DNA of 64,000 nt from Escherichia coli (GTDB lineage: Bacteria > Pseudomonadota > Gammaproteobacteria > Enterobacterales > Enterobacteriaceae): assembly GCF_050920415.1 (NCBI RefSeq), contig NZ_CP169309.1. One strand, given 5' to 3'. The first letter of the stretch is position 1, and the number at the start of each line of letters is the position of its first letter. The translations under genes were made by a program, and so were the position numbers. Positions 33,077 to 38,978 of the stretch are shown here, piece after piece. A model generated the notes under the pieces. That model was given only the letters and a program-made list of their open reading frames with translations, was not told where the DNA came from and did not search any database.

Positions 33077-33439
33077 TTGATGGGGATAGAATTTGTTTTG
33101 CCTTACCCGCCGACGGTAAATACCTACTGGCGTCGTCGTGGCAGCACATATTTTGTATCAAAAGCAGGGGAGCGTTATCGCCGGGATGTGGCGCTTATTG
33201 TTCGCCAGCAGCGGCTGAAATTAAATCTGTCCGGAAGGCTGGCAATAAAAATTATTGCAGAGCCACCGGATAAGCGCCGTCGTGACCTGGACAATATTCT
33301 GAAAGCACCACTGGATGCACTGACACATGCGGGACTGCTTATCGACGACGAGCAGTTTGATGAAGTTAATATTATGCGCGGTCAGGTTGTTCCCGGTGGT
33401 CGGCTGGGGATAAAAATCACAGAACTGGAGTGCGCATGA
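33077..33439 (+). CDS. rusA: RusA-family Holliday junction resolvase
   Basis: 120-aa ORF; RusA catalytic core with RRRDLDNILKAPLDAL. Confidence 0.9.
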   Translation: MMGIEFVLPYPPTVNTYWRRRGSTYFVSKAGERYRRDVALIVRQQRLKLNLSGRLAIKIIAEPPDKRRRDLDNILKAPLDALTHAGLLIDDEQFDEVNIMRGQVVPGGRLGIKITELECA

Positions 33440-34101
33440 ATAACCAGTATTTACAGTTTGTGCGTGAGCAGCTCACGATCGCCACCGCTGATTTGAGTGG
33501 AGCAACAAAAGGTCAGCTTGAAGCCTGGCAGGAGAATGCCATGTTCAATACAGGGCGTTACAGACGTAAAAAAATCCGGTACCGCGATAAGGTCACTGGA
33601 AAAATAGTAACGCTGGATAATCCACCGATCCCGGGAAAGCAATCGCTGGCGAAAGGTTCATCAATTGCCCTGGTCAGTCCGGTTGAGTTTTCGACATCAT
33701 CATGGCGACGCGCCGTTCTGTCTCTTGAAGAACATCATAAAGCCTGGCTGCTGTGGTGTTACAGCGGTAGCATTTGCTGGGAGCATCAGATCGCGATAAC
33801 GCAGTGGGCGTGGATTGAATTTAATGCTCAATCCGGTACCAGAAAAATTGCAGGAAAAACTCTGGTGCGCCTGAAGACGTTGAGCTGGTTGGCGGCGCAG
33901 GCGGTAAAAGCTGAGCTTTTTGGTGGGGAAGGTTACGAATACCAGGAACTGGCGTTACTGGTGGGAGTAACAACCAAAAACTGGTCCAAGACATTTACTG
34001 GTCACTGGGTTGCAATGAAACACATTTTTCATCGGCTGGATAGTGAAGCTTTATTGTTAGTGGAGAGAACACGTTCAAAACAAAAGGCGGCATTTTCATA
34101 G
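33436..34101 (+). CDS. putative late-gene antiterminator (Q-like, QuuQ-type)
   Basis: 222 aa immediately downstream of rusA and upstream of a promoter plus terminator pair typical of pR'/tR'; assignment by position, not motif. Confidence 0.6.
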   Translation: MNNQYLQFVREQLTIATADLSGATKGQLEAWQENAMFNTGRYRRKKIRYRDKVTGKIVTLDNPPIPGKQSLAKGSSIALVSPVEFSTSSWRRAVLSLEEHHKAWLLWCYSGSICWEHQIAITQWAWIEFNAQSGTRKIAGKTLVRLKTLSWLAAQAVKAELFGGEGYEYQELALLVGVTTKNWSKTFTGHWVAMKHIFHRLDSEALLLVERTRSKQKAAFS

Positions 34102-34108
34102 CAAAGTA

Positions 34109-34137
34109 TTGCAAAAGTAGATTAAAACGCATATATT
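34109..34137 (+). promoter_or_regulatory. candidate late promoter pR' (approximate)
   Basis: TTGCAA-17 nt-TATATT just after the Q-like gene and about 55 nt before the tR'-like terminator. Confidence 0.45.
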
Positions 34138-34190
34138 TCGTGTAAATCTGATATTTTGCCGTTTTTATACGTGATGGCAAAGCTAGTAAA

Positions 34191-34215
34191 ACCCGCGACC
34201 GAGCGGGTTTTTTAT
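34191..34215 (+). terminator. tR'-like rho-independent terminator (approximate)
   Basis: CCCGC-gaccga-GCGGG followed by TTTTTT. Confidence 0.6.
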
Positions 34216-34355
34216 CCCCCCAAAAAATGGCATAGACATTAAACGTGATGACGATTGTGCCAATACTTTCTCCATCAATGACGCCCCTTGACTGCATGGA
34301 ATCCAATTTGTTATGTAATATGTGTTGATATTTTTGAGTTGTTAATGGTGTTACT

Positions 34356-35069
34356 ATGAATGACAGTGCTCTGCTCAGAAACTCTTCACTTTTTGTTGCT
34401 TATATGGGCTGTCTAGGATGGGGAAGCGCTTATTTCTATGGATGGGGTACTTCATTTTACTATGGCTTTCCATGGTGGGTTGTCGGGGCTGGTGTCGATG
34501 ATGTTGCACGAAGTTTGTTTTATGCTGTGACAGTTATCGTTATATTCCTTATTGGATGGGGAGTTGGTATTGTTTTCTTTTTGGGCATAAAACAAAAGCG
34601 CAATATACAAAATTTGAGTTTTATCCGGCTTTTTCTCGCGATATTGCTGCTTTTTATTCCACCTGTTCTGGAGTTTTCGGTAATTCATCAGCATGTTGAG
34701 CCAGATGTACTGATTTTCTGCATTCTTGCTGCCTTTACAATCACGCTTTTTGTCAGGTCTGGAAGAAGACTTGTTTCAGTCAAATGTTTTTCGGAAATGT
34801 CTTTTATTCGCCATCACCGAATTGAGTTCATGATGGCTGGGTTTATGATTTATTTCTGGGCATTCTCTCTTATTGCCGGTTGGTACAAACCACAGTTTAA
34901 GAGGGAATATCAGGCGATCCACTATGAGAATGTATGGTATTACATTATTGCGCGTTATGATGATCGTCTGGTGTTATCGAAATCATACAGGAGTGGGGGT
35001 AAGAAATTCGTTATATTTAATAGCGGAAATATTAATGATTTTGAAATTAATACTATCAGAGTGCGTTAA
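34356..35069 (+). CDS. polytopic membrane protein (moron downstream of Q)
   Basis: 237-aa ORF in AT-rich DNA; about 6 hydrophobic helices; own promoter-like TTGACT-17-TTATGT upstream; T-rich terminator downstream. Confidence 0.55.
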   Translation: MNDSALLRNSSLFVAYMGCLGWGSAYFYGWGTSFYYGFPWWVVGAGVDDVARSLFYAVTVIVIFLIGWGVGIVFFLGIKQKRNIQNLSFIRLFLAILLLFIPPVLEFSVIHQHVEPDVLIFCILAAFTITLFVRSGRRLVSVKCFSEMSFIRHHRIEFMMAGFMIYFWAFSLIAGWYKPQFKREYQAIHYENVWYYIIARYDDRLVLSKSYRSGGKKFVIFNSGNINDFEINTIRVR

Positions 35070-35243
35070 AATTTCTTGAGTAATGAAGATTTTTACTGCC
35101 CGGCATTGAGCGGTTTTTTTATGCCAGAAAAATGGTGTGGTACATAAAATGTGCTGGTGGTTATTAATACCGGTCTTTCAGCTTGCTGGCTTTTTCGACA
35201 AGAGTTATTGGTATGTCACGTTAACCAATAAAGAGAAAAAGAC

Positions 35244-35441
35244 ATGCTAAAACAGCAGGATATGACCGAAACAGCCAGAGTGGTGTTTAATGAATTAAGC
35301 GTCACTGAACCGGCAACAGTTGGGGAAATTGCGCAGAATACTTACCTTTCACGCGAACGCTGCCAGTTAATACTGACCCAGCTTGTGATGGCGGGTCTGG
35401 CAGATTATCAGTTCGGTTGTTACAGACGCCTTCCGCAGTGA
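35244..35441 (+). CDS. small hypothetical protein, possible winged-helix
   Basis: 65-aa ORF upstream of the methyltransferase gene. Confidence 0.4.
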   Translation: MLKQQDMTETARVVFNELSVTEPATVGEIAQNTYLSRERCQLILTQLVMAGLADYQFGCYRRLPQ

Positions 35442-35591
35442 AGGCTTTTTACTTTGTGGTAATGGGCGGCTGGTGGGTGTTAGCGGCACCTGCCAGCCAT
35501 CTGCTCATGTGTTGAGGTCACAAGCAAACCTCAGGCCCATCTGCTTTGCGCAAAAGCGGTATGAGCCTATCAGAGAAGTGCTTATTGATCT

Positions 35592-36677
35592 ATGGCTAAT
35601 ACTGTAAAAATATCCAGTTGTGAGTTAATCAACACTGATTGCCTGGAATTTATCCAGACCTTATCGGAAAACTCTGTCGATCTTATAGTCACAGACCCGC
35701 CATATTTTAAAGTGAAGCCCGAGGGCTGGGATAACCAGTGGAAGGGCGACGATGATTACCTAAAATGGCTGGACCAGTGTCTGGCTCAGTTCTGGCGGGT
35801 ACTGAAGCCTGCCGGAAGTCTTTACCTGTTTTGTGGTCATCGCCTGGCATCTGATATCGAAATCATGATGCGTGAGCGCTTTAATGTGCTGAACCACATT
35901 ATCTGGGCGAAGCCGTCCGGACGCTGGAACGGGTGCAACAAAGAAAGCCTGCGGGCGTATTTCCCGGCAACAGAGCGCATTCTGTTTGCCGAACATTATC
36001 AGGGGCCATATCAGCCAAAAAATGCCGGCTATGCGGCAAAGGAGCGCGAGCTTAAACAACACGTCATGGCCCCGCTGATTTTTTACTTTCGTGATGCGCG
36101 TGAATCACTGGGAATAACGTCCAAACAGATAGCGGAAGCCACCGGAAAGAAAAACATGGTGTCGCACTGGTTTGGTACCAGTCAGTGGCAGTTACCGAAC
36201 GAAGCTGATTACAGAAAACTGCAGGCGCTGTTCGCGCGTGTTGCAGAAGAAAAACACCAGCGTGGGGAGCTGGCAACGCCACACCAACTGCTGGTCAGCA
36301 CATACAGTGAACTGAACCGGCAATATGCCAGTCTGCTTGAGGAATACAAATCTCTGCGGCGTTATTTTTCTGTATCGGCCGCCGTTCCTTATACGGATGT
36401 CTGGACGCATAAGCCCGTACAGTATTATCCGGGTAAGCATCCCTGCGAAAAACCGGCGGATATGTTGCGTCAGATAATTTCTGCCAGCAGTCGTCCGGGG
36501 GATGTGGTTGCGGATTTTTTTATGGGATCGGGGGCAACAATAAAAGCAGCAATGGGATTGGGGCGTCGCACGATTGGGGTTGAACTTGAGTCCGGGCGTT
36601 TTGAACAAACAGTTGGTGAAATATTGGTGCTGAACGATAAATTGCGAAATGCACAATTAGATAAGAACAGGAGCTAA
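35592..36677 (+). CDS. beta-class DNA methyltransferase (N6-adenine or N4-cytosine), orphan
   Basis: 361-aa ORF; motif IV DPPY near N-terminus (LIVTDPPYF) and motif I near C-terminus (DVVADFFMGSGAT); no adjacent restriction gene. Confidence 0.85.
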   Translation: MANTVKISSCELINTDCLEFIQTLSENSVDLIVTDPPYFKVKPEGWDNQWKGDDDYLKWLDQCLAQFWRVLKPAGSLYLFCGHRLASDIEIMMRERFNVLNHIIWAKPSGRWNGCNKESLRAYFPATERILFAEHYQGPYQPKNAGYAAKERELKQHVMAPLIFYFRDARESLGITSKQIAEATGKKNMVSHWFGTSQWQLPNEADYRKLQALFARVAEEKHQRGELATPHQLLVSTYSELNRQYASLLEEYKSLRRYFSVSAAVPYTDVWTHKPVQYYPGKHPCEKPADMLRQIISASSRPGDVVADFFMGSGATIKAAMGLGRRTIGVELESGRFEQTVGEILVLNDKLRNAQLDKNRS

Positions 36678-37197
36678 TCCTCGATTAATATCTAAGCCAA
36701 GCAGGATGCTTGGAAGTTCTGATATATTCTTATCGTTTTTCGGTATTTAAAACTGATTTTCGCTGGTTGCGAAAGCACGTGGTCGGGCACTGCGTTCACA
36801 CATGCAGGAGGGTGTGAAGTCAGCTTTTTTTCTGTGTATTCAGATGGCGTTCTGATTCTATAACGAGTTACGTGGACATCAGGGATGGAGAGAATAGGAA
36901 CGCCATCTTAATACATTTTCCCCGTTTATTTGATATATCTTCCGGATAAGGGATTAGGTCTGGTTTTTTATGTCATTCAATAACGCTCTTCTATACTGTA
37001 TACAATACTTTATCCTGGCAGTGTGTTTAAAACCTGAACTTATCCTTTGTTTCGTTTATAGACAGAAGGGTTAATATCGACTTATCATCAGCAGGATGGC
37101 AACAGATGTGTAAGCAGCTGGTCACCAGTTATACTTCAGTGGTACTTCTGAGTGCTTCTCTCCGTGAAATGATTATCATCCAGATGACAGGAGTAGA

Positions 37198-37476
37198 GTG
37201 AATATTGATGATATTTCCAGGTGCTCCAGCTTGTTGCAGCGTATTGAGGATGTTAATGCTGAACGAGCCAGGGCCTTTAGTCGTTTGACAGTTATATTTT
37301 CTACCCCTGATCGCCTTTCAGGAAAGAACATTGTTTTATTAAACAGTGATGCCATCCATAAGGTTTTTGAAGAGTTCATGGCTGCTAATTCAGAATTGCT
37401 GGCTCTTGTTGAGGAATACAACGAGATAGCCAGCCGTGTCGGTATGGATGAATTCAACGTCATACTTCGTGGATAA
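37198..37476 (+). CDS. hypothetical protein
   Basis: 92-aa ORF followed by a strong terminator. Confidence 0.4.
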   Translation: MNIDDISRCSSLLQRIEDVNAERARAFSRLTVIFSTPDRLSGKNIVLLNSDAIHKVFEEFMAANSELLALVEEYNEIASRVGMDEFNVILRG

Positions 37477-37499
37477 AAACATGCTTCATATTTTCTGTT

Positions 37500-37524
37500 A
37501 GCTCGCTACGGCGAGCTTTTTTTG
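37500..37524 (+). terminator. rho-independent terminator (approximate)
   Basis: AGCTCGC-tacg-GCGAGCT followed by a T-run. Confidence 0.55.
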
Positions 37525-37657
37525 TATCTGAGCCACACCTGGCGCACATCAAAAACACAGAGCCTTTCAGGAGGTGCTTACGGGATTGTCAGTGTGACTT
37601 TCACTGTGGGCTGGTAACCATCTGGCGCAGGCTCGTCTACGCAAAGGAAAAGTCACG

Positions 37658-38083
37658 ATGTTAGGTATTTTCAAAAAGAAAACCCGCAAGGCCATCACAG
37701 AAGTGAAGAAGATGGAGAACCGTGATGCGGTGGAGGCGACCGTCTGGGGCGCATATTCCATTGCATATGCCGACGGCACCTGCGATGCGAAAGAAATCGC
37801 AGTACTGGAGAAAACTATTGCTGCGCTTCCTGCTTTTGCACCGTTCTCTGGTGAGATTGCCCAGATGAGCGCCAATATCCGCGCCCGTTATGAAGCGTCA
37901 CCGCGTAGTGCGAATGCGCATGCATTGCGTGAGCTGGCTGATGTGGCGGGGACAACTGAGGCGGTTGACGTGCTTTGCCTCTGTCTGGATATCGCTGATC
38001 AGGATGGCATTGGTCCGGATGAAGAAGCGCAGCTCAAGAAAATTGCACAGGCGCTTCAGTTACCACTGGAGCAGTATCTGTGA
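37658..38083 (+). CDS. TerB-like (tellurite-resistance TerB family) protein
   Basis: 141-aa ORF; two D-G-x-x-D-x-x-E-like segments (YADGTCDAKEIAVLE, DQDGIGPDEEAQL). Confidence 0.5.
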   Translation: MLGIFKKKTRKAITEVKKMENRDAVEATVWGAYSIAYADGTCDAKEIAVLEKTIAALPAFAPFSGEIAQMSANIRARYEASPRSANAHALRELADVAGTTEAVDVLCLCLDIADQDGIGPDEEAQLKKIAQALQLPLEQYL

Positions 38084-38232
38084 AAAGTGCGGGCCTTGTG
38101 CTGGCTGCCATCCTGTTGTTTCTGGTAGTGGCAGTGGATTTCACTGGATGGCTGATGTCGGTACTGGCTGATGGTGTGCTGGTGGCGATGGTAACGGTCT
38201 TACTCTGGCCTTTACTTCGCAAATCTGAATAA
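38080..38232 (+). CDS. small hydrophobic protein (about 50 aa), possible lysis-associated membrane protein (weak call)
   Basis: GTG overlapping the stop of the TerB-like gene; VKSAGLVLAAILLFLVVAVDFTGWLMSVLADGVLVAMVTVLLWPLLRKSE; below ORF-track size cutoff. Confidence 0.3.
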   Translation: MKSAGLVLAAILLFLVVAVDFTGWLMSVLADGVLVAMVTVLLWPLLRKSE

Positions 38233-38317
38233 ACAGCCTACAAAAGGTATCTGCGGGTACCTTTGATAAAGTTTTTTAGGGCCGCTGATGGTCCTTTTTA
38301 TTTACAGGAGAATAAAT

Positions 38318-38710
38318 ATGTCTGAACCCTTATCCGGTTCCGGCACTGCTGTGGCGCTCGGCGGGGCGACGGTATTCGGGCTGTTTACCGGGACGGATTT
38401 CGGGATTGTATTTGGTGCGTTCGCTGGTGCGTTATTTGTGGCAACAATGCCGCAGACACTTTCAGCCTGGCGTGTGGCTGCACATTTTCTGGTGTCCTTT
38501 ATTGTTGGTGTGCTTGGGGCCCGTGGTGTGGCCGGTTACATGGCGGAACGTATTGGGTTTAACAGTGCTTCCGTTGATGCGTTGTGTGCGGTCCTGGTGT
38601 CGGTGCTCTCAGTAAAAGTCCTGTCATTCATCCACCAGCAGGAGATTACATCACTGGTATCCGGTCTGTTCTCCCGTCAGCGTGGAGGAGGTGGTGGTAA
38701 TGACAAATAA
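38318..38710 (+). CDS. putative holin (multi-TM lysis protein)
   Basis: 130 aa from Met11 of ORF 38288..38710 with GGAGA RBS; Gly/Ala-rich TM helices; directly upstream of endolysin. Confidence 0.6.
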   Translation: MSEPLSGSGTAVALGGATVFGLFTGTDFGIVFGAFAGALFVATMPQTLSAWRVAAHFLVSFIVGVLGARGVAGYMAERIGFNSASVDALCAVLVSVLSVKVLSFIHQQEITSLVSGLFSRQRGGGGGNDK

Positions 38711-38978
38711 TCTTCCAGGATTACTGAATGCGGCGTTATGTACGGTTATCGTACTGACGCTTTTTTTCTACCGCAGAAAAGAGTCCCGACACAAACCGCT
38801 GATATCGTGGTGCGCCTGGTGTCTGATGCTGTTGTATGCGATAACGCCGTTAAGTTATCTCTGTGGTCATCCGTTGCCGGCAGACTGGCTGGTAGTGATG
38901 CTGAACCTGGTGTTTGGTGTCATGGTAGTGCGTGCGCGCGGTAATGTTTCAAAAATTTTTGCTTTCCTGAGTGGCTGA
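38700..38978 (+). CDS. second lysis-cassette membrane protein (holin or antiholin-like)
   Basis: 92 aa from Met7 of ORF 38682..38978; GGAGGAGG RBS; three hydrophobic segments; overlaps the holin stop and endolysin start. Confidence 0.5.
   Translation: MTNNLPGLLNAALCTVIVLTLFFYRRKESRHKPLISWCAWCLMLLYAITPLSYLCGHPLPADWLVVMLNLVFGVMVVRARGNVSKIFAFLSG

Follow-up and report, generated by a model that had tools for sequence, protein, structure and literature searches.

We analysed a 64,000-nucleotide stretch of Escherichia coli DNA (the window; RefSeq assembly GCF_050920415.1, contig NZ_CP169309.1) that carries a lambdoid prophage, and focused on a cassette that lies between the antiterminator gene Q and the holins of this prophage, all on the + strand (Table 1). 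The cassette holds an open reading frame (ORF) for a 65-aa protein (PGAP entry WP_000917767.1, 'hypothetical protein'), a DNA methyltransferase (MTase) gene (WP_000024338.1, 'DNA-methyltransferase') and, between them, a 150-nt spacer that comparison with related loci identifies as a structured leader RNA of the MTase gene. A first-pass annotation, made from the window sequence alone, had called both ORFs at exactly these positions and described an orphan, phage-borne, beta-class MTase in the late region with a putative small winged-helix gene upstream. These points stand, the late-region placement being borne out by Q on one side and by the holins, which begin at 38288, on the other; the conserved, structured spacer was overlooked, as was the fact that the clade of the enzyme has already been characterised.

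Table 1. Features of the Q-to-holin stretch of the prophage, in window coordinates.
Feature	Position	Strand	Basis and remarks
Antiterminator Q	33430..34101	+	PF06323 Phage_antiter_Q, E 3.6e-89; PGAP 'bacteriophage antitermination protein Q'; start of the late operon
Candidate pR', TTGCAA-17-TATATT	34109-34137	+	Promoter scan; directly 3' of Q
Strong intrinsic terminator (tR'-like), CCCGCGACCGAGCGGG + T6	~34192-34214	+	Sequence, minimum free energy (MFE) fold
237-aa multi-pass membrane protein, moron between tR' and cassette	34356..35069	+	PHROG 1521 (function unknown), E 1e-85; no Pfam match
Chi octamer GCTGGTGG, second cassette copy	35153-35160	+	
Conserved motif CTTGCTG-N12-AGAGTTA	35182-35188 and 35201-35207	+	5' of the 65-aa ORF; alignment of 59 diverged upstream regions
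8-bp inverted repeat TTATTGGT/ACCAATAA	35205-35212 / 35224-35231	+	5' of the 65-aa ORF
65-aa winged-helix protein gene	35244..35441	+	PHROG 331 (function unknown), E 1e-37; AlphaFold2; Foldseek
Intrinsic terminator GCCTTC-CGCAGT-GAAGGC, then TTTTTACTTT	35428..35455	+	Terminator scan; MFE -9.5 kcal/mol
Structured MTase leader RNA, ~140 nt	35454..35591	+	Alignments, covariation, folding
Leader 5' end, UUGUG	35454..	+	
P1 hairpin	35462-35508		Base AUGGGC/GCUCAU (35462-35467 / 35503-35508) plus 14-bp upper stem, loop AGC
Chi octamer GCTGGTGG	35469..35476	+	Inside the 5' arm of P1
P4 long-range helix	35516-35526 with 35579-35590		3' strand is nt -13 to -2 before the MTase AUG
P3 irregular hairpin	35533-35568		Conserved C.A mismatch
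M.EcoGII-family beta-class N6-adenine DNA methyltransferase, 361 aa	35592..36677	+	Pfam, PADLOC, sequence identity
Three small cargo genes before the holins	37198-38232		92-aa ORF (PHROG 2873); TerB-like (PF05099, PHROG 632); DUF3927/TciB-like 50-aa membrane peptide
Terminator 3' of the 92-aa ORF	37500-37517		

By aligning the cassette across seven phages, we found that the spacer is more conserved than the 65-aa ORF upstream of it, and that a 40-nt block of it has not changed even in a Morganella phage, in which identity of the small protein is down to 45%. Pairwise comparison puts its conservation level with or above that of both neighbouring genes: identities of leader, 65-aa ORF and MTase were 81%, 64% and 78% against phage mEp460, 69%, 57% and 66% against the Morganella phage, and 83%, 78% and 72% against a Kluyvera locus. 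A hidden ORF in the spacer (35442-35591) was ruled out by 1-nt indels and the lack of a conserved frame. An nhmmer profile of the spacer matched 197 of 245 collected loci and, among the species-level loci listed, every full-length match ended at the MTase start codon. The association also holds when the MTase plays no part in the search: a DNA pattern from the arm of the first hairpin, P1, retrieved 120 viral contigs, and in 118 of the 118 that could be assessed (the other two run off the end of the locus) an MTase gene lay ~130 nt downstream.

To estimate covariation, we used 59 representatives below 95% identity from Escherichia, Citrobacter, Klebsiella, Enterobacter, Kluyvera, Mixta, Buttiauxella, Hafnia, Yersinia, Rahnella, Ewingella, Lonsdalea, Rosenbergiella, Tatumella, Providencia, Proteus and Morganella. 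The two arms of P1 change together across this set (GGCUGG/CCAGCC, GACUGU/ACAGUC, GGCGUAC/GCACGCC, GACAGUG/CACUGUC, GGCAGAAG/CUUCUGCC and GAUCGG/CCGAUC). In the MAFFT alignment 84.5% of cells formed standard pairs, versus at most 44.5% when the 3' partners were slid by 1-3 columns, and in the covariance model (CM) alignment 86% did so, versus at most 45.4%. Cells changed on both sides numbered 125 (52 +/- 5 in shuffles) in the MAFFT alignment and 131 (41 +/- 6 in shuffles) in the CM alignment, with compensatory change in 18 and 27 pairs, respectively, and the observed covariation was reached by 0 of 500 shuffles in either case. These tests used the P3 register of the window, which is off by one for most members (helix 5: only 55% of cells paired). 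When P3 is folded alone, virtually all members yield one and the same irregular hairpin, in which apical sequences differ and the C.A mismatch is kept. Pairs of the G.U type outnumber A.C pairs by 196 to 39 in the leader, which places the structure on the + strand, in the sense of the MTase mRNA.

Five diverged leaders (window, SfV, Providencia, Hafnia and Vibrio) fold independently to the combination of P1, P3 and P4, with z-scores of -3.6 to -5.8. The 3' strand of P4 ends just short of the MTase start codon in the window, covers the A and U of the AUG in the Providencia member, and covers the whole AUG in the Vibrio member. Three unpaired stretches, CCAU, AAACC and UAUCA, are invariant. In addition, the invariant UGGGC at the base of P1 is perfectly complementary to an invariant GCCCA in P3 (248 of 248 cells pair), and in the only two sequences with a change both partners have been replaced (A-U for G-C), which is suggestive of an alternative conformer or a pseudoknot. 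We make no claim for a further 5' helix (P0, UUGUG with CACAA), for which support is only moderate: pairing holds in 77% of its cells, and as many as 43 of 500 shuffles match the observed values. The covariation shows that selection has maintained an RNA structure on the strand of the MTase mRNA and that this structure involves the start region.

Conservation of the spacer at the DNA level, whether as a Chi hotspot, a protein operator, an MTase promoter or through recent horizontal spread of a mosaic joint, would account for some of these features. The 5' arm of P1 contains a Chi octamer and another lies 300 nt upstream, both of them presumably oriented for RecBCD entry from the cos-proximal (right) end, and Chi is 6-fold enriched in the window (15 observed versus 2.6 expected). 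Near-identical joints are shared among lambdoid mosaics, and TGTGAAAAT, present in many relatives, looks like an extended -10 element. However, diverged leaders lose the Chi octamer and keep the hairpin by compensatory changes, so that Chi was rejected as the cause of conservation; P3 and P4 covary too; the 5 to 1 excess of G.U over A.C is strand-specific and hence a property of RNA; and the architecture is conserved out to Vibrio. We regard a DNA-level cause as very unlikely. A sigma-70 promoter inside the leader was also considered and rejected, as its -10-like hexamer is not conserved (GGTAAT in the window) and transcription beginning at that point would leave out segment 'a', the covarying partner of segment 'b'.

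The leader has left little trace in annotation. No Rfam 15 family matched at E <= 1 over it, either in the window or in six diverged loci. There was no RNA or regulatory feature on it in the 40 records listed of 59 leader-containing phage records, two of which annotate a hypothetical CDS across it, and PGAP places nothing over it. We found no description of the leader or of the regulation of the cassette in the literature, of which our coverage was incomplete, so an earlier description is possible. The leader is thus apparently undescribed and is well supported, while the M.EcoGII enzyme family that it precedes is already characterised.

Leader matches with the same architecture extend to Vibrio, at 32-43 bits. 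In two Vibrio species (L163:2198-2438 and L165:2192-2330), the leader is followed by a 36-45-aa Zn_ribbon_Com ORF, which scores 24.6 bits against PF10122 (gathering score 22.9), and then by the MTase; an 82-aa winged-helix-like ORF lies ~220 nt upstream, and the MTase reading frame of L163 is split at 2785/2813. Partial forms were seen elsewhere. Xenorhabdus and Photorhabdus loci (L115-L140) have the 65-aa ORF, a spacer of ~95 nt and a P1-like hairpin (GGCUGGUG...CACCAGCC), with P3 and P4 missing or unrecognisable. A Trabulsiella locus (L092:1500-1671) has a degenerate second copy, consisting of a terminator, UGUGAAGAUGGGC and a P1 hairpin (1526-1600), in front of an unrelated 132-aa late-region moron ORF, and from this copy the 5' half of the leader may be a separable module. 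Phage phiSTEC1575-Stx2k (L246:2274-3345) retains the 65-aa ORF together with the P1 part of the leader (nt 1-70 of the query), followed by a 237-aa 'HTH domain' protein, possibly the C-terminal part of the MTase, and then by tRNAs and stx2k; it is an apparent deletion derivative. In a Hafnia locus, a full-length SIB RNA (Rfam RF00113, 105 bits), a type I antitoxin, was found just downstream of the MTase (L149:3782-3928).

Directly ahead of the leader, an intrinsic terminator overlaps the stop codon of the 65-aa ORF (35439-35441). A G+C hairpin with a U-rich tail occurs at the same place in most relatives outside the Providencia type, including 17 species-level loci that lack the 65-aa ORF, and in some loci without this ORF the leader stands directly behind a promoter-plus-terminator pair. 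Since the terminator is kept where the 65-aa ORF is missing, the constant unit comprises terminator, leader and MTase, and the 65-aa ORF is optional.

The MTase matched Pfam PF01555 (N6_N4_Mtase) with an E-value of 7.3e-43 and 147.5 bits (cut-off 26.7) and PADLOC model MTase_II PDLC03265 with an E-value of 2e-152; all NCBIfam matches were far below their cut-offs. Motif IV (T34-D35-P36-P37-Y38) lies N-terminal to motif I (D308-F-F-M-G312-S-G314, with FMGSG at aa 310-314) and both are invariant in a six-member alignment, which confirms the beta class that had been read from DPPY (D35-P-P-Y38) ahead of FxGxG (F310-M-G-S-G314). The Pfam match covers 312 residues for a 221-position profile, solved chains match only the catalytic half-domains (residues ~8-114 and 281-340, best E 3e-23), and the structure search found no solved relative for the central ~165 aa. 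It follows that the middle of the enzyme is an insertion particular to this family and forms its target-recognition region. No nuclease domain was found among the neighbours scanned (34356-38978) and PADLOC reported only the MTase, as the first-pass annotation had said in noting no restriction partner nearby; within this region the cassette has no cognate endonuclease and is not a type II restriction-modification system.

At the nucleotide level, the cassette matched 39 phage records with 82-91% identity, mostly Stx2-converting phages, plus phiP27 and 1720a-02. The MTase is 86% identical to M.EcoGII (295 of 345 positions, with 2 gap positions; sequence from the supplement of PMC11551740), the whole central target-recognition region included, and 70% identical to the reconstructed ancestor SUPREM, both values being lower bounds because the reference sequences were machine-read from supplements; identity to the phage 1720a-02 enzyme is also 86%. 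M.EcoGII is a prophage-encoded non-specific adenine methyltransferase that is unexpressed in its native strain and deleterious when expressed, and the same study names the enzyme of 1720a-02 as a homologue very similar to it (Murray et al. 2018, PMC5778455). SUPREM retains non-site-specific activity (PMC11551740). In the EC958 methylome, the M.EcoGI/GII homologue M.EcoMV was silent by reverse transcription PCR and left no detectable mark in the lysogen (PMC4659465), and in O111 Shiga toxin-producing E. coli lysogens no methylation was attributable to M.EcoGI/GII homologues (PMC6602927). By sequence, the MTase falls inside the M.EcoGII/M.EcoGI clade with measured non-specific activity and should methylate adenines in any sequence context.

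A contrasting reading is that of an orphan methylase with a defined target site, active in the lysogen and reprogramming the expression of host genes. Some prophage methylases act in this way, such as M.EcoGIII in O104:H4 (PMC6602927), and the C-terminus of the MTase differs from those of its relatives, so that specificity is extrapolated for this exact protein: the last ~17 residues, located after motifs I to III, are unlike theirs and are followed by a 9-aa extension. Nucleotide homology to the methylase genes of Stx phages stops near 36604, ~70 nt before the stop codon, and 36604-36677 represents a recombination joint within the 3' end of the gene. However, the match to M.EcoGII spans the region that recognises the target, among the site-specific relatives that the literature names the closest, M.PflMI, falls outside the clade (PMC11551740), members of the clade are silent in lysogens, and the gene is preceded by a terminator and has its start site sequestered. 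We give a site-specific, lysogen-expressed enzyme hardly any weight. The suggestion in the first-pass annotation that the methylase may alter host gene expression is likewise unlikely to apply in a lysogen, for a silent and toxic enzyme. That annotation had proposed a REBASE search for target specificity and a methylome comparison of the lysogen with a cured strain, and would have counted a missing motif or missing expression as refutation. Since the expected specificity within this clade is none, there is no REBASE specificity to find; since the clade is silent in lysogens, the methylome comparison would be a false negative and uninformative; and neither 'no motif' nor 'not expressed' would refute anything.

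The 65-aa ORF is, by its conservation, a real protein-coding gene. Its product has 334 homologues in the protein collection and tblastn matches in 57 phage records, is conserved down to ~45% identity in Morganella, Proteus and Xenorhabdus, and keeps the signature MLKQ.DMT ... RCQLILTQL.MAGL from Escherichia to Xenorhabdus and Proteus at ~40-50% identity. The small winged-helix gene suspected in the first-pass annotation is supported by AlphaFold2, which from a 29-sequence alignment gave a model of three helices and a beta-hairpin wing with a predicted local distance difference test score (pLDDT) of 92.8. Foldseek matched this model to MarR and IclR winged helices, to the N-terminal winged helix of O-methyltransferases and to the RNA-binding winged helix of SelB, at template modelling (TM) scores of 0.7-0.8. 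The NCBI label 'TrmB family' was not supported, as PF01978 reached only 18.0 bits against a cut-off of 25.6 (E 0.0026), and the Pfam search gave no HTH_3 match; the model supports only a generic winged-helix fold.

In phage Mu, the small Zn-ribbon protein Com binds the mom mRNA and opens a fold in which the mom start is buried, and the toxic adenine-modifying enzyme Mom is translated late. The 65-aa protein could be a dedicated trans-regulator of the MTase in a similar way, either as a repressor or activator of the cassette or as a leader-binding factor like Com. Of 115 pattern-retrieved loci, 99 have its gene directly 5' of the MTase, as do 205 of the 245 loci in total, and a further sample has the gene in 55 of 80. 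This adjacency spans the Enterobacterales and has a distant analogue in Vibrio, the winged helix is confidently modelled and has an RNA-hairpin-binding domain, that of SelB, among its structural matches, and a conserved motif and inverted repeat 5' of its own start are a possible operator. However, 17 of 44 species-level loci have the full leader and the MTase with no 65-aa gene nearby, 24 loci have the 65-aa gene without a detectable full leader, two loci with near-identical small proteins (L143 and L145) have different P1 stems and so give no sign of co-variation between protein and P1, and PHROG 331 is labelled 'unknown function'. We consider a dedicated trans-regulator rather unlikely; the pattern of occurrence suggests instead a frequent but dispensable companion of the cassette. 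Tentatively, the likeliest role of the protein is to regulate either the cassette or the conserved region 5' of its own gene. Over 35182-35267, the motif, the inverted repeat and the first ~24 nt of the ORF (ATGCTAAAACAG..GATATGAC) hardly vary in nucleotide sequence between genera, even where identity of the small proteins is down to 45%, and the motif and repeat (35182-35231) may be a promoter/operator, a hairpin of the 5' untranslated region or a second RNA element.

The likeness of the cassette to com-mom goes beyond the small gene directly upstream, since the window would also have a late, toxic adenine-modifying enzyme whose start lies in an mRNA structure, and since Vibrio relatives have a Com-family Zn ribbon (PF10122) between leader and MTase, which supports post-transcriptional control of this family. 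In contrast to Mu, the window has no Com (no such ORF in 35442-35591), its upstream protein is a winged helix, its enzyme is an S-adenosylmethionine (SAM) methyltransferase, and its leader is ~140 nt long with three helices where Mu has a single stem-loop pair.

The best explanation of these observations, and one that we consider probable, is a late-operon cassette in which terminator and leader gate a toxic, non-specific, N6-methyladenine-forming anti-restriction enzyme; for its activity, silence, toxicity and anti-restriction role we rely on analogy with the literature on the clade. In the lysogen the MTase gene would be silent; synthesis of the enzyme would await read-through of the terminators by Q-modified RNA polymerase that started at pR', and the anatomy of the locus suggests that both tR' and the terminator ahead of the leader would be passed by the Q-modified polymerase alone. 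Two barriers would protect the lysogen: the terminator at the stop codon of the 65-aa ORF would halt non-antiterminated transcription, and P4, by pairing ~12-13 nt directly 5' of the MTase AUG, would limit or time translation, from which we infer that the leader may be a translational lock. The complementarity of UGGGC and GCCCA suggests a conformational switch. Silence in the lysogen is predicted from the terminator and the sequestered start, and the gene does lie in the late region of a prophage. With methylation occurring late, replicating phage DNA would be heavily methylated before packaging, and the progeny could then escape the restriction systems of new hosts.

Several observations weigh against this explanation. 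A terminator of this type is absent from the Providencia-type relatives, and the Xenorhabdus and Photorhabdus relatives keep only a P1-like hairpin. On the side of the enzyme, the C-terminal ~17 residues are replaced relative to the characterised relatives, and non-specificity is extrapolated from 86% identity. In E. coli-type leaders, moreover, the purine-rich GAGAAG is unpaired 15-20 nt upstream of the AUG, and P4 could bring it nearer to the AUG and so activate translation. This last point leads to the idea that the leader is a positive element, either an mRNA 5' stabiliser, an RNase III site (as in the lambda N leader), or a fold that sets the distance between purine tract and AUG, with P4 needed for translation. 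The ~20 bp of P1 are of a size suited to RNase III, the 3' strand of P4 lies between GAGAAG and the AUG in E. coli-type leaders, and the MTase initiation region lacks a canonical Shine-Dalgarno sequence. However, an extension of P4 of the Providencia type pairs the GG of AAGG, and P4 there occludes part of the start codon and in Vibrio all of it; the invariant unpaired nucleotides also exceed the needs of a stabiliser hairpin. We consider a positive element unlikely.

Returning to the gated cassette, a bolder extension, to which we would give somewhat less than an even chance, is that the leader represents an undescribed class of cis-regulatory RNA dedicated to M.EcoGII-family MTases in prophages of Enterobacterales and Vibrio. 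In such a class, the UGGGC switch and the P4-held start would respond to a cue of late infection (a protein, a metabolite such as SAM or S-adenosylhomocysteine, or the speed of the Q-modified polymerase) that licenses translation of an otherwise lysogen-lethal enzyme.

The surroundings of the cassette are those of a late operon with cargo. Upstream of Q lie a DUF968 protein and RusA, and downstream the gap between the candidate pR' and its terminator is ~55 nt; by position and sequence, 34109-34214 appears to be a lambda-like pR'-tR' arrangement. Such a pair would give a short 6S/StxS-like transcript, and a weak, sub-threshold Rfam match to isrJ (E 0.37) was seen at 34141-34212. After tR', the order is the 237-aa membrane protein gene, with a sigma-70-like -35 site (TTGACT) 5' of it at 34289, the 65-aa ORF, the MTase, an ORF-free stretch of 520 nt, the 92-aa ORF, the TerB-like gene, DUF3927, two holins and lysozyme. 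Sister phages have other cargo at the position of the 237-aa moron, for example a GIY-YIG nuclease in phiP27. The 520-nt stretch (36678-37197) contains no ORF of at least 40 aa, has promoter-like sites, such as 36970-36997 and 37059-37088, and occupies the position that tRNA and stx genes have in Stx phages. No tRNA or tmRNA genes were found in the window, and stx genes are likewise absent from it.

The position of the cassette is constant behind unrelated Q types (phiP27, 1720a-02, SfV, mEp460, cdtI and Morganella phage IME1369_02), and phiP27 and 1720a-02 have this cassette immediately 5' of stx2, with annotated tRNA genes in between in phiP27. At least part of the Q-to-holin stretch, the cassette included, is matched in 2,420 of 5,426 complete E. 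coli genomes, some of which are 100% identical over 34100-38300 and have the same two genes called by PGAP.

In lambda pR'-tR' (6S RNA) and StxS of Stx2 phages, transcription from a constitutive late promoter meets a terminator that stops all but Q-modified polymerase. A pair of this kind is present in the window, as is a further terminator before the MTase leader, but the leader here lies downstream of that terminator and has none of its own, and is a 5' leader rather than a terminated small RNA. Controller (C) proteins of restriction-modification systems are likewise small proteins of a DNA-binding type encoded directly upstream of a modification gene, but theirs is an Xre-type helix-turn-helix that acts on C-boxes and controls a restriction gene, whereas here the protein is a winged helix, without HTH_3, and there is no restriction gene. 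With the riboswitch-like and protein-responsive leaders in Rfam, the leader shares a multi-helix 5' structure ending at a start codon, invariant unpaired nucleotides and a possible alternative pairing, but it matched no Rfam 15 family at E <= 1. M.EcoGII and M.EcoGI (E. coli O104:H4 C227-11) resemble the window MTase in their DPPY...FxGxG beta-class order, as prophage-borne orphans and, in sister phages, in their place between Q and the lysis or stx genes. They differ in that M.EcoGII has 349 aa compared with 361, the window enzyme having its last ~17 residues replaced and 9 added, and in that the upstream terminator, leader RNA and small gene are not described in PMC5778455.

The above analyses bear first on annotation, since labels such as 'site-specific DNA methylase' and 'TrmB family regulator' can be replaced by better-founded ones. 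M.EcoGII is a common tool in footprinting of chromatin and RNA, yet one paper states that its 'precise biological function is unknown' (PMC11551740). In many Stx2 phages the cassette stands directly upstream of the toxin genes, which puts the terminator and the leader on the transcript that carries stx. The covarying leader provides a testable handle on what keeps a genome-wide adenine methylase of a prophage from doing harm before lysis, and on how regulatory RNA modules travel with toxic cargo genes.

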